Below, in pieces: positions 4,434 to 58,988 of a stretch of 64,000 nt of DNA; position 1 is the stretch's first letter; each line of letters begins with the position of its first letter. The DNA is from Flavobacteriaceae bacterium UBA3591 (GTDB lineage: Bacteria; Bacteroidota; Bacteroidia; Flavobacteriales; Flavobacteriaceae): NCBI GenBank assembly GCA_002375695.1, contig DFMO01000008.1:38784-102783 (forward strand), given 5' to 3'. The notes beneath the pieces were generated by a model. That model was not told where the DNA came from, made no database searches, and saw only the letters and a list, made by a program, of their open reading frames with translations. The position numbers were made by a program, and so were the translations under genes.

Positions 4434-5192
4434 CTATTTAAACCGAAGCATAGTTTCAAGAATATGATTTACTTGCTTTGTTTTTTGTCTTGAAACAGGC
4501 ACTTCAACATCATCGTGCATCACCAAACTGCCTCCGTCATGCTTTAAAATTCCTTTTACATAGCGCGGATTGATTAAATGTGATTGATGCACCCGAACAA
4601 AACCGTGTTCAGATAAAAGTTCGTCAATCTCTTTTAGCGTTCTGCTTATTAACACCTTGTTTTGATCTTTGCAAAATATATGGGTGTAATTACTGTCAGA
4701 CTGACATCGCACAATATTATCGATTTCTACAATTTGGTACCCAATACCCGTAGGCAGTGCAATTTGTGAACATTCGTTGTCGGTTTTATCGAGGTGTTTT
4801 TGAAATAATTCCCATTGTTTATCAGACGTTTTATTGCGTCTTTTTTCCCAGTTTGAAAGTGCTTTTACAATATTTTTTTCGGTAATAGGTTTTAGTAAAT
4901 AATTGATAGCACTATAACGAAATGCTTTTATGGCATATTGATCATAAGCCGTTGTAAAAATTACATCAAAATTAATAGGGAAAAGATTATCTAAAAGCGC
5001 AAAGCCGTTTAATTTGGGCATTTCAATATCTAAAAATAATAAATCTGGCGGGTTGTTTTTTATAAATTCCAAGCCTTCAATTGGGTTTGTAAAAATACCC
5101 GTGATTGTATAATCGGAATGAATTTTTTCGATTAAACTCGCTAATACATTGGTGCAATGCATCTCGTCATCTATAATTATTATTTTTGCCAT
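4434..5192 (-). CDS. LytR/AlgR-family response regulator (receiver + LytTR DNA-binding domain)
   Basis: 252 aa. Receiver motifs IIIDDE and DLLFLDIEMPKLNG. The C-terminal LytTR-like region contains RCQSDSNYTHIF and VRVHQSHLINPRYV. Confidence 0.85.
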   Translation of the reverse strand: MAKIIIIDDEMHCTNVLASLIEKIHSDYTITGIFTNPIEGLEFIKNNPPDLLFLDIEMPKLNGFALLDNLFPINFDVIFTTAYDQYAIKAFRYSAINYLLKPITEKNIVKALSNWEKRRNKTSDKQWELFQKHLDKTDNECSQIALPTGIGYQIVEIDNIVRCQSDSNYTHIFCKDQNKVLISRTLKEIDELLSEHGFVRVHQSHLINPRYVKGILKHDGGSLVMHDDVEVPVSRQKTKQVNHILETMLRFK

Positions 5193-50277: not shown

Positions 50278-53200
50278 ATGAAACAACTTAACTATTTAAC
50301 AACATTATTAGTACTCTTCATATTCTCGAGTACAATTACTGCACAAACAGTAATTGGGTTTGAGGATTTTGACGGTAATGAAATTAATCTTTCAGGTTCT
50401 ACCAACGTGGCCAATTACGGCAGTGGTGGAGGTGCGGGCGGCGATGTTTTTGGCCGTGTTAACGGACAAGCTGGTGGAATAGGGATGCCTTTTGACGTTG
50501 CAGACGATACTGCTTATAACGTAAGTGGCGGAGGCGCTGGATCTAATTTTCCTGCAGACCAATTGGGGATAGCAGGTCAAAACACCACGGCTTTCTTTGC
50601 TTTAAACGATATGGATGCCGTAGGGGTTAACGACGCCGTTTGGACGTTTTCTGGCTGGGGTGATGCTGTCATAAATTCAATTACAATAGATTTAGCAGCT
50701 ATGGGTAATTTTGAAACTGCGAGCAGCGATGGCTTTATAATTGAAGCTGCTGTTAATGGCGGTGCTTTTCAAGAAATTTTTAGAGCTGTAACAAATGAAG
50801 CTGAAACAAAAACTTACCGTCCGTTAGACGGTGGATTTGTTTTAACTACAGACGATCCATTAGAGTTATTTATTGACGGAAACCTTACTGCTGAAGGGTT
50901 TTTAGATAAATGCGATGTAGTTACAGGTAATTTTGATACCTACACTTCGCAACTTTTAAATGGTGAAACAGCGTCAGAAATACAAATTAAGCTTAGATGG
51001 GAAGGCGCTCCAAGTGGTTCGGAGCCTATGGGGATTGACAATATTACAATTAACGGCACTCCAATAGTAAGTACTCCAGAGCTGGTAATTTCTGAAATAA
51101 TGTACAACCCATCAAGTTCAGAAGATGATTGGGAGTGGATAGAAGTTTACAATGCTGGAGCCACTGCAGTAGATTTAGCTGGTTTTGTAATCGACGACAA
51201 CAATGGTGCAGCGCATTCTTCTGCAAACATTGCAGGTGGTATAATTGCTGCAGGTGCCTCGGCAGTTTTCTTTAATGCAGATGATATTACTGAAACCGAT
51301 TTTGCAGCAGCTTGGGGCGATGTGGCGCTTATTCCTGTAACAAATTGGGGGGCAATGACGTTGAATAACGGTGGCGATACAATAGCAATTTGGGAAAGTT
51401 TTGCAGCTTACACAGGCGATCATCAAACACAACTTAATGCAATTGAGCAAGTGGCTTATGATGATTCTAATGGCTGGCCAAGTGATAACAATGCAGGGTC
51501 AATTTATTTAACAGATTTAACCGCCGATAATACCGATGGTGCTAATTGGGCGTTGAGTACAGATGGCGCTTCAACACCACTCTTTACAGCTTATACAAGT
51601 AACGCGGCTGCTGGCAATTCTGGTGCAGATGTTGGTTCGCCAGGAGTACCTGCCAGCAGTATAAAACCGTTGTTAATTACTGAAATTGCCGTAACACCAA
51701 CGGCAGGCGAATTTATTGAAATATACAATCCAAATGCTACAAGCGTAGATTTGAGCAATGTTTATTTAACCGATGCAACTTTTGCCGGAGGGTCTACATA
51801 TTATTATAATATTGTTACTGGCTCAAATGCTGGTGGCGGCGGGTTTGGCGACTTTTTAGCACGCTTTCCCGATGGAGCTACAATCGCTCCCGAAGAATAT
51901 ATAACTATTGCTATAACCGGATCAGAAGACTTTTTTGCGACTTATGGCGTTAATCCAGATTACGAATTATACGAAGATAACGCAACTGCAGATGCAATTC
52001 CTGATATGCGCGAAGGCCTTGCCGGGAGTATAAATAACCAAGGGAGTTTAACCAATGGTGGTGAGGTGGCAATTCTATTTTATTGGGATGGAACAACCGA
52101 TTTGGTAACCGATTTAGATTATGTAATTTGGGGTGATACCGCCGAAGCTGTAGATAAAACAGGTGTAACAATAGACGGTCCCGATGCAGATAATATTGGG
52201 TCTACCTATAATAATGATACACCAATAGCCTCGCAACAATTGGTTAGCACTTCGGCGCATAGTGTGGGCGAATCTTTTCAAAGACAAGACCTTTTAGAAG
52301 GTGCCGAAATAACTTCGGGTGGAAATGGTGCTAACGGGCACGATGAAACTTCAGAAGACTTAATGAATACTTGGTGCTCATCGGCGACTACGCCAGGACA
52401 GGCAAATACTTGTGGTACAGCGCCTACTACACTTTATAAAATTAGTGAAGTACAAGGAGCTTCTACAAGTTCACCTTTGGTTAATCAATCTGTAAAAGTT
52501 TCGGCTATAGTAACAGCTACTTTCCAAGGTACAAACCAAATAGGCGGGTTCTTTATCCAGGAAGAAGATGTTGATATGGATGCAGATAGCAATACTTCAG
52601 AAGGTGTATTTGTATACTGTAATTCTTGCCCAGATTTAGTTACTGTGGGCGATTTGGTTGAGGTAACGGGTACTGTAAAAGAATTCTTTGGAATGACGCA
52701 AATAGATGTTACTGTACCAAACAGTTTAATTACCGTTGTAAGTAGCGGAAATCCGTTGCCAACACCAACAGATATAACGCTTCCGGCAGCAGATAGTACT
52801 AGTGCCGAAGCTACTTTTGAAAGTGTTGAGGGGATGATTGTAAACGTAACAACCCCGCTAGTAGTAAGCGAGTATTTTGAATTAGCTCGATACGGTACGC
52901 TTATGCTTACCGCCAACGAAAGAGAATTCCAGTTTACACATACAAATACTCCAGACCCAACTAATTATACGGCATTTTTGGAAGATTTAGGTAAAAAACG
53001 AATTTTGTTAGACGATGATAGCAATATTCAAAACAACGCTACGGCAGGACCTGTAGATCAGCCGTACTTTTGGCCAAGACCGGGCTTAAGCAATTCTAAT
53101 TATATTAGAGGAGGCGATCAAATAAGCAATTTAAAAGGAATTATGCACTGGTCATTTTCAGGTCAAAATGGTACAGATGCTTGGCGAATTAGACCAGTAG

Positions 53201-55026
53201 TTGATGCATTCGATTACAACTTTACTTCAGAAAACCCACGCGTTTCTGAACCCGAAGAAGTAGGAGGAACTTTTAAAGTTGCTAGTTTTAACGTGTTAAA
53301 TTACTTTACAACTTTAAACCAAAGAGGTGCTCATTCGCAAGTAGAATTAGAACGTCAGCGTGCAAAAATAGCTGCTGCTATCTGTGCCTTAAATGCCGAT
53401 GTAGTTGGATTAATTGAAATAGAAAACAACGGTACAGTTGCTTTAAACGATCTTTTAAACGGTACGGGAGGAATTAATGACGTTTGCGGTAGCGACTATG
53501 TAGCAGTTGATGCAGGTGTAATTGGCGGCGATCAAATTGCGGTTGCATTTATTTATAATGCTGCAACAACATCATTGGCTGGTGCGCATGCTATTTTAGA
53601 TAGTTCGGTAGATCCACGTTTCCTCGATAGTAAAAACCGTCCTGCCTTAGCACAAACATTCGAAGAAATTGCTACAGGTGGTAAAATTACAATTGCAGTT
53701 AACCATTTTAAATCAAAAGGTTCTTCGTGTAATGACGTTGGCGACCCTAATTTAAATGATGGTTCTGGAAATTGTAATGGTACCAGAACCGATGCTGCAG
53801 CTGCTTTAGTAGACTGGCTTGCAACAGACCCAACAAATAGCGGCGACACAGATTTCTTAATTTTAGGAGATTTAAATTCGTATAAAAGTGAAACGCCAAT
53901 AAGCGCAATTCTTGCAGGAGCCGATGACACTCCGGGCACAGGTGATGACTATACCGATTTACTTGCACATTTTGTTGGCGCTAATGCTTACGGATATGTT
54001 TTTAACGGCCAATTGGGCTACTTAGACTATGCACTAGCAAATGCCGATTTACTTACGCAGGTTACGGGTGCAACTTCTTGGAATATTAATGCAGACGAAA
54101 TTAATCTTTTTGATTACAATGATGGCGTTCAAGATCCTGGAGAGGCTTCATTTCACAGAGAGTCTAATGCCTTGCCTATTTACGAACCCAACATGTTTAG
54201 AGCTTCAGATCACGATCCCGTGCTAGTAGGTTTAAATTTAGTTACGGCAAACAACGCTCCGGTAATTGATTGTCCCGCAAATATTTCGACAAACGTAGAT
54301 GCTGGAAGCTGCAGTGCAATAGTTGTTTTCCCAGATGCAACGGCTACCGATGTAGACGGCGATTTACAAACGGTTGAACAAACCAACGGTTTAACTTCGG
54401 GGAGTGCATTTCCTGTGGGTGAAACGGTTATTGAATTTACTGCAACCGATTCTAACGGAAATACCGCTGTTTGTACGTTTACAATTACGGTTATAGATAA
54501 TGAAGCTCCGCAAATAGATTGTCCGGCCGATTTTACTGTAGACACAGGAGTAGGGAATACACAATACGAAGTGCCAGATTTCTTTGCCACAGGTGTTGCT
54601 ACTGCAAATGATAATTGTACAGACCCTGTAACAATTTACACCCAAAATCCGGCAGAAGGCGAGCTTTTAGATGACGGTGTTTACGAAGTAATCTTAACAG
54701 CAGAAGACGAATACGGAAATATTTCAGATTGTTCATTTAACCTTACCGTTGAAAGCGTTTTGGGGGTAAGTGAAAACCTGTTGGAAAATGCCGTACGTAT
54801 TTTTCCAAACCCCGCAAAAACTGAAGTAACAATCGCAAAAAGTAGCGATATTTCTTTAGAATCTGCAACGGTGTTTGATATTACCGGAAGAGTAATTATG
54901 ACAGTTAATTTAAAAGCAATGAACCAGGAGAAAACAATTGATATTTCAAAATTTCAGTCTGGTATCTATTTAATTAAATTAGAGAGTGCCAATGCAACGC
55001 TCACAAAACAACTATTGAAGAAATAA
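50278..55026 (+). CDS. ExeM/NucH-type extracellular endonuclease: two lamin-tail (LTD) domains, an endonuclease/exonuclease/phosphatase (EEP) domain, HYR modules and a T9SS C-terminal sorting domain
   Basis: 1582 aa with a signal peptide. LTD-like ISEIMYNPSSSEDDWEWIEVYN and ITEIAVTPTAGEFIEIYNPNATSVDLS. EEP motifs FKVASFNVLNYF, VVGLIEIEN, NHFKSKG, LGDLNSY and RASDHDPVLVGL. CTD motif VRIFPNPAKTEVTIA. Confidence 0.8.
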   Translation: MKQLNYLTTLLVLFIFSSTITAQTVIGFEDFDGNEINLSGSTNVANYGSGGGAGGDVFGRVNGQAGGIGMPFDVADDTAYNVSGGGAGSNFPADQLGIAGQNTTAFFALNDMDAVGVNDAVWTFSGWGDAVINSITIDLAAMGNFETASSDGFIIEAAVNGGAFQEIFRAVTNEAETKTYRPLDGGFVLTTDDPLELFIDGNLTAEGFLDKCDVVTGNFDTYTSQLLNGETASEIQIKLRWEGAPSGSEPMGIDNITINGTPIVSTPELVISEIMYNPSSSEDDWEWIEVYNAGATAVDLAGFVIDDNNGAAHSSANIAGGIIAAGASAVFFNADDITETDFAAAWGDVALIPVTNWGAMTLNNGGDTIAIWESFAAYTGDHQTQLNAIEQVAYDDSNGWPSDNNAGSIYLTDLTADNTDGANWALSTDGASTPLFTAYTSNAAAGNSGADVGSPGVPASSIKPLLITEIAVTPTAGEFIEIYNPNATSVDLSNVYLTDATFAGGSTYYYNIVTGSNAGGGGFGDFLARFPDGATIAPEEYITIAITGSEDFFATYGVNPDYELYEDNATADAIPDMREGLAGSINNQGSLTNGGEVAILFYWDGTTDLVTDLDYVIWGDTAEAVDKTGVTIDGPDADNIGSTYNNDTPIASQQLVSTSAHSVGESFQRQDLLEGAEITSGGNGANGHDETSEDLMNTWCSSATTPGQANTCGTAPTTLYKISEVQGASTSSPLVNQSVKVSAIVTATFQGTNQIGGFFIQEEDVDMDADSNTSEGVFVYCNSCPDLVTVGDLVEVTGTVKEFFGMTQIDVTVPNSLITVVSSGNPLPTPTDITLPAADSTSAEATFESVEGMIVNVTTPLVVSEYFELARYGTLMLTANEREFQFTHTNTPDPTNYTAFLEDLGKKRILLDDDSNIQNNATAGPVDQPYFWPRPGLSNSNYIRGGDQISNLKGIMHWSFSGQNGTDAWRIRPVVDAFDYNFTSENPRVSEPEEVGGTFKVASFNVLNYFTTLNQRGAHSQVELERQRAKIAAAICALNADVVGLIEIENNGTVALNDLLNGTGGINDVCGSDYVAVDAGVIGGDQIAVAFIYNAATTSLAGAHAILDSSVDPRFLDSKNRPALAQTFEEIATGGKITIAVNHFKSKGSSCNDVGDPNLNDGSGNCNGTRTDAAAALVDWLATDPTNSGDTDFLILGDLNSYKSETPISAILAGADDTPGTGDDYTDLLAHFVGANAYGYVFNGQLGYLDYALANADLLTQVTGATSWNINADEINLFDYNDGVQDPGEASFHRESNALPIYEPNMFRASDHDPVLVGLNLVTANNAPVIDCPANISTNVDAGSCSAIVVFPDATATDVDGDLQTVEQTNGLTSGSAFPVGETVIEFTATDSNGNTAVCTFTITVIDNEAPQIDCPADFTVDTGVGNTQYEVPDFFATGVATANDNCTDPVTIYTQNPAEGELLDDGVYEVILTAEDEYGNISDCSFNLTVESVLGVSENLLENAVRIFPNPAKTEVTIAKSSDISLESATVFDITGRVIMTVNLKAMNQEKTIDISKFQSGIYLIKLESANATLTKQLLKK

Positions 55027-55048
55027 TACTTTTATCTGTTAAAAATAG

Positions 55049-55081
55049 AAAACCGCCCATAGGAATTGGGCGGTTTTTTTA
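55049..55081. terminator. Bidirectional terminator between the nuclease gene and the convergent sigma factor gene
   Basis: aaccgccca (55051..55059) pairs with tgggcggtt (55067..55075), with an A-run before and a T-run after. Confidence 0.8.
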
Positions 55082-55103
55082 TGCAATTTACTTTACAGTT
55101 CTA

Positions 55104-55625
55104 TTAGCTGCATTTTGCACAGTCTGCCTCACCAATTAAATTCCCGTTTTTATCAAAATCGTATTTACAACACTCACTAAATTTTTCTTTTAACATAGCT
55201 TTGGAACGTCTAATTCGGGCTTTTATATTGGCTAAACTTATTGACAATAGTTGTGCAGCCTCTTCTTGTTTTTTACCTTGAATGTATACTAATTCTACCG
55301 TTTCTTTATAAATAGAAGGCAAATCATTTATAAACTCATCAAAACAACAAAAAGCTTCCGTGCTTTCGGTAGTTGAATATTCTTGATTGTTTAAATGATT
55401 TACATATTTAGCCTCGTTTGAAAAGTAATTCGCTATTTCATTTCTCGCTATTTGAAAAACCCAAGCCTTAATTTTTTGATCTTCTCTAACCCGATGAATG
55501 TTTTTATGAATCTTTAAAAAGGTATTTTGAAAAATATCGCCTGTGGCAACTTCGTTTTTTACCCTTTTTAAGATGAAAAAATAGAGTTGTTCATTAAATT
55601 GGGTCCATATTTTTTCGGTGTCCAT
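55104..55625 (-). CDS. ECF-type sigma-70 family RNA polymerase sigma factor with three Cys pairs (SigZ-like subgroup)
   Basis: 173 aa from ATG 55625. Region 2 (FQNTFLKIHKNIHRV..AWVFQIARNEIANYF), region 4 HTH (VELVYIQGKKQEEAAQLLSISLANIKARIRRSK), an inter-domain FCCF, and a C-terminal tail SECCKYDFDKNGNLIGEADCAKCS. The TTG 55643 start in the track would place the coding sequence inside the upstream hairpin. Confidence 0.8.
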   Translation of the reverse strand: MDTEKIWTQFNEQLYFFILKRVKNEVATGDIFQNTFLKIHKNIHRVREDQKIKAWVFQIARNEIANYFSNEAKYVNHLNNQEYSTTESTEAFCCFDEFINDLPSIYKETVELVYIQGKKQEEAAQLLSISLANIKARIRRSKAMLKEKFSECCKYDFDKNGNLIGEADCAKCS

Positions 55626-55628
55626 ACT

Positions 55629-55667
55629 CAAAAATAAAAACAAAGGTTGAATAAAAATTCAACCTTT
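55629..55667 (-). terminator. Hairpin plus T-tract between the Cys-rich peptide gene and the sigma gene (terminator or attenuator)
   Basis: The minus strand reads AAAGGTTGA-ATTTTTAT-TCAACCTTT (perfect 9-bp stem, 55667..55642), then GTTTTTATTTTTG. It starts 6 nt after the peptide stop and ends 3 nt before the sigma ATG. Confidence 0.6.
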
Positions 55668-55673
55668 TAATAT

Positions 55674-55787
55674 TTAACAGCAGTCGCACTTGCTACATTC
55701 ACACTTTTCGCAACTACAGTTTTGTTGCGCGCAATTTACACAGTTACATATAGTACACTCGCAGTTAGTACATTTACAATTATTCAT
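55674..55787 (-). CDS. Unannotated 37-aa cysteine-rich peptide (metallothionein-like): MNNCKCTNCECTICNCVNCAQQNCSCEKCECSKCDCC
   Basis: Manual reverse translation with ATG at 55787..55785 and TAA at 55676..55674. 14 of 37 residues are Cys, with no His or aromatic residues and a 15-nt (CxCxx) periodicity. It has its own downstream hairpin/T-tract. It is shorter than the ORF-track cutoff. Confidence 0.6.
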   Translation of the reverse strand: MNNCKCTNCECTICNCVNCAQQNCSCEKCECSKCDCC

Positions 55788-55857
55788 AATTTATATTTTT
55801 TAGGTTCATTAAGTAGACTGGAAAGATGTAAAAAGGATACATTTTATTTCAAGCTTT

Positions 55858-56624: not shown

Positions 56625-57185
56625 ATGAGTATAATTTTTCTTTTTCTGGGAGTAATTATTGTTGTAGCACTTCTGTTTGTAATTGTTTACAACCGCTTTG
56701 TAAAAAATAGAAACATGGTCAAAGATGCATGGAGCAATATTGACGTGGCTCTTAAACGTAGGTACGATTTAATTCCTAATCTTGTTGAAACCGTAAAAGG
56801 GTATGCAGCGCATGAAAAAACAACCTTATCGCAAATAGTTGAAGCGCGCAATGCTGCAATGGCAGTACCTTCAGATAATATTAACGAAAAGATAAAAGCC
56901 GAAAACCAACTGCAACAAACCCTTAGAAGTATTTTTGCTTTAAGTGAAGCGTATCCCGACTTAAAAGCAAATACTAACTTTTTGGATTTGCAGCAAAAGT
57001 TGAATGAAATTGAAGAAAATTTAGAGCGAAGCCGAAGGTATTATAACGGCACAGTACGCGAAAATAACACCTATGGCGAGAGCTTACCGGGCGTGCTTTT
57101 TGCGGGAATGCTAAACTATAAACACTTTGATTATTTTGAAGTAGACCAAGCTGCTCGCGAAAATGTAACTGTGAACTTTAATTAA
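56625..57185 (+). CDS. lemA: LemA family protein
   Basis: 186 aa. N-terminal TM segment, then YNRFVKNRNMVKDAWSNIDVALKRRYDLIPNLVETVKGYAAHEK and RRYYNGTVRENN. Confidence 0.9.
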   Translation: MSIIFLFLGVIIVVALLFVIVYNRFVKNRNMVKDAWSNIDVALKRRYDLIPNLVETVKGYAAHEKTTLSQIVEARNAAMAVPSDNINEKIKAENQLQQTLRSIFALSEAYPDLKANTNFLDLQQKLNEIEENLERSRRYYNGTVRENNTYGESLPGVLFAGMLNYKHFDYFEVDQAARENVTVNFN

Positions 57186-57266
57186 TAATTACAAATTTTT
57201 AATGCGGCGTGGCTTTTTTAGCAATCCTGCTATCTTTTTTATTTTCAATTTAATGAAAATTAAATA

Positions 57267-58988
57267 ATGAAACTTTCTATCCAATCTGGTTTAATTAGTA
57301 AAAAATTGCTGCTTAGTATTTTTGGAATATTTTTTATTCTGAAATCTTCGGCGCAAGATTTTATTGTAAATAAATGCGATGTAGATATTTATATTAAAGA
57401 GGAAGGCTATTTTGATGTAATTGAAACGTACGATTTAACATTCAATCTGCAGCGCCATGGCATTTATAGAAATTTTGTAACCAATTACGATTTATTGACT
57501 GAAAAGGGCACTAAAGAAAAACGAAAGATTAAAATTTCAAATATTGAAGTACCCAATTATAAATTTATTACCAATCCTAGTCACTTTCAAAATCTAAGTG
57601 ATAATCTTCAAATTAGAATAGGAGATGAGGACGTTACCGTAATTGGCCCTCAGCAATATCAAATTAAATACCGCGTACACAACGCTTTTTTATTCGAAGA
57701 AAATCAAATACGTTTTTACTGGAATATTAAAACTGCCGATTGGAATTCGGTTTTCGAAAAAATAAATTTTGCAATTCACCTACCTTCGGGGGTAGAATCT
57801 AGTTTGGATGATATTTTTGTCTATACGGGTTATACAGGTGAAACTTCCGATTCTGGAAACTTTGATATTACTTACAATAATGGGGTTTTTGCTGCCGAAA
57901 GTGTGCCTAAATACAAATCGTATAGCGGTCAAAATGTCACGGTTTTACTTAACCTACCATTAAATGCTGTAAAAGAAATTAAACCGTTGTGGCCTTTTTG
58001 GTCAGATTACGGATGGACCATTATTTTAGCGACTTTGTTGCTTGCGTTTTATTTAATTTGGAATAAGTACGGTAAAGACGATAAAACTATTGCCACTACA
58101 AGTTATTTTCCGCCCAGCGGGATTGATCCGGCGATGGCAGGATTTTTAATAGACGATACCGAAGACACTCAAGATTTAATTTCATTAATACCCTATTGGG
58201 GGGCTCGTGGCCTAATTGCTATGGTACAAATTCCTAAAAAGGGGTGGTTTGGCCAAGACGATACTAAACTTACAAAATTACGCCCATTGCCCGATGGAGC
58301 ACCTAATTACGAGGCAAAAATCTTTAACGGTTTATTTGGGGGCAAATATGGTACAGAGAATAACGAAGTACTTATTAGTAGTCTTAAAAATTCTTTTTAT
58401 ACCAATATGCTAAAAGCTAAAATACAGCTTAAAAAGAGCGCCCAAATTTATTACGTGGCTCAAGCCCGAAAGGTGCAAACAATAACAATTGTAGGTACCC
58501 TAATTTTAAGCACAATACTATTTTTTATTTTTCTAGCTACCTGGGGTTTAATTGCTGCTTTGGCTGTTATTCCTGTTACTATTTTCTTATTGTTTATGAG
58601 TGTGTATTTGGTAAAGAAAAATGCTTTAGGGAACGAAGTTTTATCTGAACTAAAAGGATTCAAAAACTTTATTAAAATAGCCGAAGAAAATAAATTAAAA
58701 ATGTTGCTGCACGATAGTCCAAACTATTTTGAAACTACAATGGGCTACGCTTTGGCATTTGGAATGTTTGATAAATGGGCTAGTAAATTTGAAGCGTTAA
58801 ACGTTCAGCCGCCTAGTTGGTACACTTCCTCGGCAGGATCATTTACAATGCATAATTTTTCAAATTCTTTTTCAAAATCAATCTCCTCTGCAAAATCTAC
58901 GATGGTTAGCTCGCCCAGCAGTAGCAGCTCGGGCGGTGGTGGATCATCGGGCGGTGGATTTGGCGGCGGTGGCGGTGGAAGCTGGTAA
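57267..58988 (+). CDS. DUF2207-family membrane protein with a Gly/Ser-rich C-terminus
   Basis: 573 aa. Signal peptide, extracellular domain, three TM segments and a tail SSSSSGGGGSSGGGFGGGGGGSW. It follows lemA, as usual for this pair. Confidence 0.7.
   Translation: MKLSIQSGLISKKLLLSIFGIFFILKSSAQDFIVNKCDVDIYIKEEGYFDVIETYDLTFNLQRHGIYRNFVTNYDLLTEKGTKEKRKIKISNIEVPNYKFITNPSHFQNLSDNLQIRIGDEDVTVIGPQQYQIKYRVHNAFLFEENQIRFYWNIKTADWNSVFEKINFAIHLPSGVESSLDDIFVYTGYTGETSDSGNFDITYNNGVFAAESVPKYKSYSGQNVTVLLNLPLNAVKEIKPLWPFWSDYGWTIILATLLLAFYLIWNKYGKDDKTIATTSYFPPSGIDPAMAGFLIDDTEDTQDLISLIPYWGARGLIAMVQIPKKGWFGQDDTKLTKLRPLPDGAPNYEAKIFNGLFGGKYGTENNEVLISSLKNSFYTNMLKAKIQLKKSAQIYYVAQARKVQTITIVGTLILSTILFFIFLATWGLIAALAVIPVTIFLLFMSVYLVKKNALGNEVLSELKGFKNFIKIAEENKLKMLLHDSPNYFETTMGYALAFGMFDKWASKFEALNVQPPSWYTSSAGSFTMHNFSNSFSKSISSAKSTMVSSPSSSSSGGGGSSGGGFGGGGGGSW

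Follow-up and report, generated by a model that had tools for sequence, protein, structure and literature searches.

A 14-cysteine peptide gene paired with a SigZ-like ECF sigma factor gene in Bacteroidota: a predicted metal-responsive operon

What is a gene for a 37-amino-acid peptide with 14 cysteines doing directly ahead of an extracytoplasmic function (ECF) sigma factor gene that has no anti-sigma partner? The question is raised by a locus on the minus strand of a 64-kb stretch of DNA (64,000 nucleotides, hereafter the window) from Flavobacteriaceae bacterium UBA3591, contig DFMO01000008.1. An earlier reading of the DNA letters (the sequence-only reading) had described there, in the order of transcription, the peptide gene, a hairpin with a T-tract and a gene for a 173-amino-acid ECF sigma factor, and we found every one of these elements at the locus. 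Compared across orthologous loci, they suggest that the two genes make up a metal-activated, self-transcribed stress operon whose main product would be a metallothionein-like peptide, a reading to which we assign a probability of roughly 0.6.

The peptide gene and its pairing with the sigma gene

The peptide open reading frame (ORF) lies directly upstream of the sigma gene, on the same strand, at all 33 orthologous loci with upstream DNA, the window included; recurrence at every locus takes the arrangement far outside what chance would give. The loci come from species genomes (L001, L002), metagenomes (L003-L027, with 24 contigs among the 33 loci) and the named genomes of Roseivirga, Portibacter, Kaistella, Aequorivita CIP111184, Cellulophaga baltica and Dokdonia (L032-L036 and L038). 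They extend over Flavobacteriaceae, Weeksellaceae, Cytophagia and Saprospiria, with sigma identity falling to 42%. The census was seeded with the sigma gene, and peptide genes without a sigma would go undetected by it. The sequence-only reading had named absence of the peptide ORF beside orthologous sigma genes as the result that would speak against a two-gene module, and the module came through this comparison intact. The features of the locus are as follows.

56454-55858, minus strand: AlkB-like 2OG-Fe(II) oxygenase gene, the upstream neighbour (Pfam)
55840-55813, minus strand: ECF-type promoter, a 28-nucleotide two-box motif (conserved motif)
55812-55804, minus strand: conserved TTAATGAAC after the -10 box (aligned upstream regions)
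55787-55674, minus strand: gene for the 37-amino-acid, 14-Cys peptide (ORF kept in orthologous loci)
55667-55642 (stem) and 55641-55629 (T-tract), minus strand: intercistronic hairpin with T-tract GTTTTTATTTTTG (terminator scan)
55625-55104, minus strand: gene for the 173-amino-acid ECF sigma factor (Pfam, NCBIfam)
55077-55049, minus strand: operon-end terminator, G+C-rich and strong (terminator scan)
50278-55026, plus strand: convergent gene for a 1582-amino-acid secreted protein (domain hits)

The genes flanking the pair vary from locus to locus: an ABC transporter, Dus, a transposase, a glycosidase, ribosomal protein S16, a beta-lactamase-fold protein, DUF families, toxin-antitoxin genes and an integrase. 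Since the flanks differ between loci, the conserved unit is exactly the peptide gene plus the sigma gene. Among 20 flanking proteins from orthologous loci we found neither an anti-sigma domain nor a conserved neighbour. At the window locus itself, the sigma gene ends at a terminator with a convergent gene beyond it, and the AlkB-like gene stands upstream, which agrees with the earlier remark that no anti-sigma gene is adjacent. The pairing has a phylogenetic limit. At four of four distant SigZ-like loci (Priestia, Vibrio, Hymenobacter and a plasmid of Arenibacter), the peptide ORF and its promoter motif, GTATCY-N16-GTCTHC, are both absent, and the coupling therefore appears specific to this Bacteroidota subfamily. 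The Hymenobacter plasmid (L042) does have a 22-codon ORF with 6 Cys, MNNEPDDCCDGTCCGGNTSGCC (4606-4674, plus strand), about 1.5 kb downstream of its SigZ-like sigma gene and adjoining arsC/arsB; it is unrelated in pattern to the window peptide and may be a chance ORF in a G+C-rich plasmid.

The window peptide, MNNCKCTNCECTICNCVNCAQQNCSCEKCECSKCDCC, has 14 Cys among its 37 residues (38%), no His, and no Phe, Tyr or Trp. Its cysteines begin at residue 4 and follow the pattern (CxCxx)x3-C-x4-(CxCxx)x2-CxCC, with six CxC units and a terminal CC. An origin of the gene from a DNA tandem repeat was considered and dismissed, as TRF found no such repeat; the (CxCxx) pentapeptide periodicity is therefore kept at the level of the protein. 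A scan of both strands of the 64-kb window detected no other small Cys-rich ORF of this kind.

In orthologous loci the ORF is 35-38 amino acids long, most often 37, and one copy starts with TTG. Codon by codon, 19 equal-length copies could be compared. All 14 cysteines are invariant among them, with TGT and TGC both used at every Cys; of 36 codons, all 36 vary at the third position, 20 at the first and 16 at the second. This combination of cysteine invariance, TGT/TGC wobble and third-position variability indicates that the ORF is translated, and that it is under purifying selection in the minus-strand frame. By this comparison it is almost certainly a real gene, and a chance ORF is a negligible explanation for it. 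An antisense ORF of 37 amino acids (55690-55803, plus strand), which recurs in relatives (for example, at L001 3814-3939), was rejected as a mirror artefact of the periodic TGY codons, the codon-position variability fitting the minus-strand frame only. Two variants, at L011 (627-734) and L020 (2843-2950), are two residues shorter and lack the terminal CC, the L011 copy ending early at a TGA in place of the penultimate TGC. The last Cys pair may be dispensable, or these two copies may be decaying.

The peptide is missing from protein collections. Exact look-up of eight variants found none of them in 15 billion predicted proteins, and a phmmer search gave no match among 1.84 billion representative proteins. 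The peptide matched no NCBIfam model, and its best PDB match was insignificant (E = 2.2). We read these absences as those of an unannotated gene with a short or low-complexity product, and not as proof of rarity. In all six named genomes the gene is uncalled: the 300-620 nucleotides upstream of the sigma gene hold no called gene, yet the conserved peptide ORF lies inside. There is thus a systematic annotation gap for this peptide family, and surveys of ECF neighborhoods that rely on annotated proteins would miss the partner of this sigma.

What the peptide might do is suggested by its composition. It shows the operational marks of a metallothionein, being small, having at least 30% Cys in CxC, CxxC or CC arrangements, and containing few or no aromatic residues or His. 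A cysteine content of about 38% in CxC/CxxC register without His or aromatics is the classic pattern of a metal-thiolate cluster. Judged from these residues, a metallothionein function for the peptide seems likely. Metallothioneins are rare among bacteria, and most come from cyanobacteria, pseudomonads and mycobacteria; the peptides described here are likely to be a new family of them, one that is widespread among marine Bacteroidota but not captured by current annotation.

Promoter, leader and intercistronic hairpin

Ahead of the peptide gene we found a -35-like box, GTATCC (55840-55835), followed by a T-run, and, after a 16-nucleotide spacer, a -10-like box, GTCTAC (55818-55813), the motif ending 25 nucleotides upstream of the peptide ATG. 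The consensus GTATCY-N16-GTCTHC, with its spacer invariant at 16 nucleotides, was found in 24 of 24 aligned loci; the -10 box reads GTCAAC in one locus and ATCTAC in another. Its distance from the ATG is 22-29 nucleotides, except in L011 (44 nucleotides), and the motif is present in the six named genomes as well. In the 64-kb window it has a single match, with 0 expected from shuffles, and it occurs once per orthologous locus, without a further match in 180 kb of sequence. We also looked for further regulon members: neither the window nor any flank of a locus contains the promoter motif a second time.

Two boxes, a fixed 16-nucleotide spacer and a GTC-containing -10 element are the usual geometry of an ECF promoter, and most ECF sigmas recognise the promoter of their own operon. 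The sigma encoded here is the obvious candidate reader, because the motif co-occurs perfectly with it, and on this pattern we consider it probable that the sigma does read the motif. We also considered a palindromic operator, but the inverted repeat that the boxes make (GTAnnC...GnnTAC) is weak, and the conserved T-run stands after the left box with no counterpart after the right one, an asymmetry that favors a promoter. The arrangement makes it very probable that the peptide and sigma genes are an operon transcribed from the conserved promoter. Transcription by an alternative sigma, with possible autoregulation, had been suggested from the window alone, and an ECF-type promoter in front of the peptide gene fits autoregulation. 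Directly after the -10 box, most of the 24 upstream regions in the alignment show a consensus TTAnTGAAC. It is predicted to be the transcription-start or early-leader region, where it could act as a discriminator or initiation element, or it could be the site of a second regulator.

The peptide and sigma genes are separated by about 48 nucleotides, most of which are taken up by a hairpin. Its A/U-rich stem of 11 bp (55667-55642) begins 6 nucleotides after the peptide stop codon and is followed by the T-tract; the predicted energy is a modest -13 kcal/mol, with z = -4.5 against shuffles. Compensatory double changes occur at 8 of 10 stem pairs across 18 orthologues, and this covariation shows that selection acts on the structure as such. 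The divergent loci L022 and L023 have no hairpin, and only about 24-27 nucleotides lie between their two genes; as the genes stay close there without it, the pair behaves as an operon, and the peptide gene does not merely serve a terminator. No Rfam family reached the gathering score for the hairpin or the leader, and the sub-threshold matches to leader families fell on the downstream terminator (55013-55082). The simplest reading is that the hairpin is a leaky terminator, which would yield much peptide mRNA and little sigma mRNA.

How the sigma might be supplied at a basal level is suggested by two further features. The sequence-only reading had reported no TAnnTTTG box, the Bacteroidota housekeeping -7 element, upstream of either gene. 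This is correct for the peptide gene of the window, and incorrect for the sigma gene: a match, TATTTTTG (55636-55629, minus strand), lies within the T-tract, 3 nucleotides before the sigma ATG, and 9 of 20 orthologous loci have a TAnnTTTG in the same position. The match may be fortuitous, a by-product of the T-tract, or it could be a basal, nearly leaderless promoter for the sigma gene. Such a promoter would be in keeping with reports that corE and corE2 are expressed at a basal level independently of metal (PMC6851896). The second feature is the AlkB-like gene, whose end is separated from the -35 box by 17 nucleotides with no terminator between. Read-through from this gene into the peptide-sigma operon is possible in this genome; the AlkB-like neighbour is not kept in other loci.

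The sigma factor and its characterised relatives

The sigma gene starts at the ATG at 55625 (MDTEKIW), not at the upstream TTG of the ORF list, and its N-terminus aligns with those of 31 homologues, which supports the length of 173 residues given earlier. Pfam places Sigma70_r2 at residues 10-72 and Sigma70_r4_2 at residues 95-145. Among NCBIfam models, the SigZ models NF007215 (150.2 bits against a cut-off of 212) and TIGR02959 (137.5 against 168.65) match best, by a wide margin; the next match is the generic sigma70-ECF model TIGR02937, at 69.4 bits above its cut-off of 42.9. In an AlphaFold2 (AF2) model with a mean predicted local distance difference test (pLDDT) score of 73.6, the helices of sigma-2 and of sigma-4 are confident and the linker is disordered, and the top Foldseek matches of the model are all ECF sigmas. 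With Pfam domains, TIGR02937 and Foldseek in agreement, the protein is an ECF (group 4) sigma-70 factor. No solved structure was found for any member of its family. Homologues at 55-72% identity occur in Aequorivita, many other Flavobacteriia, Roseivirga and Portibacter, and a second homologue search, started from a divergent member, returned Bacteroidota only.

The protein has six cysteines, in the places where the sequence-only reading had put them. Two, C93 and C94, lie in the linker (FCCF, 55349-55344), and four (C152, C153, C169 and C172) lie in a 24-residue tail, SECCKYDFDKNGNLIGEADCAKCS (55178-55107), in the arrangement CC-x15-CxxC. All six are invariant in 32 homologues, and they are kept down to 42% identity. 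The AF2 model places a beta-hairpin between the CC and the CxxC of the tail, with low-to-moderate confidence.

Cysteines in comparable positions are found in the group ECF238, formed from the former ECF24 and ECF44, to which belong CorE and CorE2 of Myxococcus xanthus and SigZ of Bacillus subtilis (PMC7826278, PMC4937300, PMC8999054). Its members have a Cys-rich C-terminal extension of about 20 amino acids, sometimes linker cysteines, and no anti-sigma factor (PMC7826278). A CxC in the linker defines the former ECF44 and is absent from about 85% of ECF238 members (PMC8999054). The window sigma has the Cys-rich C-terminal extension and lacks a cognate anti-sigma gene. It would be of the SigZ/ECF238 kind, a placement that runs through its relationship to SigZ and the published assignment of SigZ to ECF238 (PMC7826278).

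The window sigma resembles SigZ in lacking an anti-sigma factor as well as in its family scores. The tail motif CCxxxxDxxGN[IL] is shared with the PGAP-annotated SigZ proteins of Priestia megaterium and Vibrio cortegadensis, as is a linker Cys before FIN-LP, although identity to these proteins is only 26-33% and the Priestia SigZ lacks the terminal CxxC. After sigma-4, the tails read ECCKYDFDKNGNLIGE in the window sigma, GCCHIKSDRYGNIVDF in Priestia SigZ and SCCNFSIDTQGNIMEY in Vibrio SigZ. SigZ of B. subtilis itself belongs to ECF238 subgroup 9, and its function is essentially unknown (PMC7826278).

More can be said of CorE and CorE2, whose likeness to the window sigma we draw from published descriptions, not from direct sequence comparison. 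All are minimal sigma-2/sigma-4 ECF proteins with paired linker cysteines, a short Cys-rich tail, no anti-sigma factor and metal-handling genes nearby. In CorE and CorE2 the cysteines have been shown to be the metal sensor, with metal as the activator (PMC4937300, PMC6851896): mutagenesis found the tail cysteines and the linker CxC essential for activation by Cu or Cd/Zn (PMC4937300, PMC6851896, PMC8999054). CorE tells Cu(II) from Cu(I) (PMC4937300). The CorE/CorE2 tails have 6 Cys in 28-38 residues, as opposed to 4 Cys in about 21 residues in the window sigma. Their known targets comprise efflux ATPases, a multicopper oxidase and a CDF pump but no metallothionein, and a conserved small Cys-rich ORF has not been described alongside them. 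The window sigma is thus a variant of a published mechanism, with CC for CxC in the linker and four tail cysteines for six. The sequence-only reading had proposed that a built-in Cys switch replaces the anti-sigma factor; this coincides with the published description of ECF238 and is not new. A metal switch is suggested for the cysteines of the window sigma because the mechanism has been demonstrated experimentally for CorE and CorE2, and by this analogy we put metal sensing by them at slightly better than even odds.

Metal transport offers modest independent support for this theme. In 3 of about 17 longer loci the next gene encodes a metal transporter: a CDF exporter in L006, a ZIP transporter in L020 and a HupE/UreJ protein in L023.

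A metal-responsive operon and the alternatives

In the mechanism that we propose, the sigma would recognise the GTATCY-N16-GTCTHC promoter of its own operon. A thiophilic metal, for which Zn, Cd and Cu are candidates, would bind the six invariant cysteines (the linker CC and the tail CC...CxxC) and make the sigma competent, and the activated sigma would fire the promoter before the peptide gene. Most transcripts would stop at the hairpin, giving much peptide, a high peptide-to-sigma ratio and a sigma kept low, while the minority that read through would renew the sigma in a positive feedback. The 14 thiolates of the peptide would sequester the inducing metal in clusters; as free metal fell, the sigma would lose its ligand and the operon would shut off. 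The peptide would then occupy the negative-feedback role of an anti-sigma factor by sequestering the signal rather than the sigma.

Two kinds of known system come close to this design. SmtB-SmtA of Synechococcus is a pair of a metal sensor and a metallothionein. RicR-MymT of Mycobacterium tuberculosis is another such pair (PMC10141476). In both, as in the operon proposed here, a cytoplasmic metal sensor controls a small Cys-rich sequestering protein, which lowers the signal. Those sensors are repressors of the ArsR/SmtB and CsoR families released by metal, whereas here the sensor would be a sigma subunit, acting positively and encoded in the same operon. SmtA and BmtA, moreover, have His and a zinc-finger-like fold, whereas the window peptide is unrelated to them in sequence and matches no Pfam metallothionein family. 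The zinc-binding anti-sigma (ZAS) systems, such as RsrA-SigR and RsiW-SigW, likewise have a Cys-rich partner in an operon with an autoregulated ECF sigma and use thiol chemistry as the switch. Their anti-sigma factors, however, are helical domains of about 80-100 amino acids with an HxxxCxxC motif that bind the sigma, whereas the window peptide has 37 residues, no His and no match to an anti-sigma family. The gene order differs too: the peptide gene precedes the sigma gene with a terminator between, and the ZAS gene follows its sigma.

Several points weigh against a metal-activated, self-transcribed operon. Start site, co-transcription, read-through and induction are all predicted from the DNA, and metal binding by sigma and peptide is likewise deduced; only DNA sequencing runs contain the window sequence, and no contig covering the region turned up in three small metatranscriptomes made from a sample in which a close relative occurs. 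Both SigZ scores lie below the NCBIfam cut-offs, so that the window sigma is no SigZ equivalog, and its linker has CC (C93-C94) in place of the CxC that is essential in CorE and CorE2 and marks ECF44. CorE-like sigmas are only partly autoregulated (PMC6851896), and the TAnnTTTG match or read-through from the AlkB-like gene could supply the sigma independently of the ECF promoter. Five variants of the peptide matched no Pfam family even at E<=10, and hence no metallothionein family, and the transporter neighbours are few and mixed, with importers as well as an exporter among them. Finally, the anatomy would also suit a thiol or redox signal in place of a metal.

In that last alternative, oxidants or electrophiles (disulfide stress, HOCl, quinones) would be detected by the sigma cysteines through disulfide formation, and the peptide would be a sacrificial thiol buffer. 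The six invariant cysteines, placed as vicinal or CxxC pairs, could indeed form disulfides, redox switching of cysteines is established for ZAS anti-sigma factors (PMC8999054), CorE itself discriminates between Cu(II) and Cu(I) (PMC4937300), and the distant relative on the Arenibacter plasmid is followed by thioredoxin-family and oxidoreductase genes. We nevertheless regard a redox signal as unlikely: metals rather than oxidants are the signals of the characterised relatives (PMC4937300, PMC6851896), the peptide, 38% Cys in CxC/CxxC register with no His or aromatics, has the pattern of a metal-thiolate protein, and no functional theme other than metal transport recurs among the genes beside true orthologues. 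Alternatively, the peptide could partner the sigma directly, as a miniature anti-sigma factor or as a co-factor held through a shared metal-thiolate cluster or disulfide exchange and released on signal. Its gene does occupy the place of a co-transcribed regulator in a typical ECF operon and is strictly co-inherited with the sigma at 33 of 33 loci, and the peptide-bearing subfamily has the linker CC where distant SigZ-like proteins without the peptide have one Cys or none. Against such a partner, which we hold to be improbable, the peptide shows no similarity to anti-sigma domains, no Pfam match, no His and no HxxxCxxC motif of ZAS proteins, and 37 residues with a Cys every 2.6 positions or so cannot form a helical anti-sigma fold. 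In addition, the terminator implies a large molar excess of peptide, which suits a buffer better than a stoichiometric partner, and CorE-like relatives work alone (PMC6851896).

The remaining two alternatives concern the peptide itself. A short ORF rich in one amino acid and followed by an intrinsic terminator is the layout of the trp-, his- and leu-type attenuators, so that the peptide could be a functionless leader in which ribosomes stalling at the 14 Cys codons sense Cys-tRNA and thereby control the terminator and the sigma. No antiterminator was found, however: across 20 loci, pairing between the peptide coding region and the hairpin's 5' arm did not exceed that seen with shuffles, and the stop codon falls 6 nucleotides before the stem with no conserved competing helix. 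The spacing of the 14 cysteines and much of the intervening sequence are conserved across bacterial classes, L022 and L023 retain the peptide without the hairpin, and no Rfam leader family reached threshold on the peptide gene or the hairpin, all of which makes a leader peptide very improbable. Less probable still is that the peptide is the precursor of a secreted or modified product, such as a ribosomally synthesised and post-translationally modified peptide (RiPP), a bacteriocin or a thiol-rich siderophore-like peptide, whose production the sigma controls. It is small, Cys-rich and unannotated, as many RiPP precursors are, but about 20 loci with flanks show no conserved modification enzyme, protease or exporter beside the module, the Cys pattern starts at residue 4 and leaves no leader-core architecture, and there is no signal peptide.

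Returning to the metal-activated operon, a more specific version of it is that the peptide and the six-Cys site of the sigma are a metal-exchange pair, in which the apo-peptide takes the activating metal away from the sigma, whether as a competing ligand or by way of a transient thiolate cluster shared by peptide and sigma. We hold this version as a doubtful extension. If true, it would make a metallothionein the functional anti-sigma factor of an ECF system, under the principle 'sequester the ligand, not the sigma', and would give the SigZ family its first defined promoter, signal and target. To our knowledge, this design has not been described for sigma factors.

The type of sigma, the Cys switch and, in other forms, the pairing of a metal sensor with a metallothionein are already known. 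In the searchable literature we found no description of the peptide family, of an obligatory pairing with a SigZ- or CorE-like sigma within a single autoregulated operon, of the conserved promoter or of an intercistronic attenuator, and the earlier impression that such a two-gene module had not been described is thereby upheld. We know of no signal or regulon established so far for B. subtilis SigZ, the founding member of its family. The module offers an entry to SigZ/ECF238: its promoter, GTATCY-N16-GTCTHC, can be tested, one gene stands out as the obvious target, and a plausible signal is at hand. With sensor and sponge in about 730 bp, under its own promoter and attenuator, it could also serve as a part for metal biosensing or sequestration.

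The surroundings of the module complete the picture. The operon-end terminator (55077-55049), 26 nucleotides past the sigma stop codon, has 11 pairs, 6 of them G-C, followed by a T-run, and is common to the sigma gene and the convergent gene on the plus strand. The 1582-amino-acid product of the latter has two lamin-tail (LTD) domains, HYR, Exo_endo_phos and Por_Secre_tail (type IX secretion sorting) domains, and is probably a cell-surface or extracellular nuclease unrelated to the module. At two other loci, mobile or defence genes adjoin the pair: in L006 (1897-2727, 3902-4453) an IS4/5 transposase lies just upstream of the module and the CDF exporter downstream, and in L032 (816-2380, 4765-5826) AbiEii-type toxin-antitoxin genes and a phage-type integrase surround it. 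Such neighbours hint that the two genes move between genomic contexts as a cassette. On the far side of the AlkB-like gene of the window and divergent from it, a LemA-family gene is followed by one for a DUF2207 membrane protein with a Gly/Ser-rich C-terminus (56625-58988, plus strand), a commonly co-occurring pair of unknown function.

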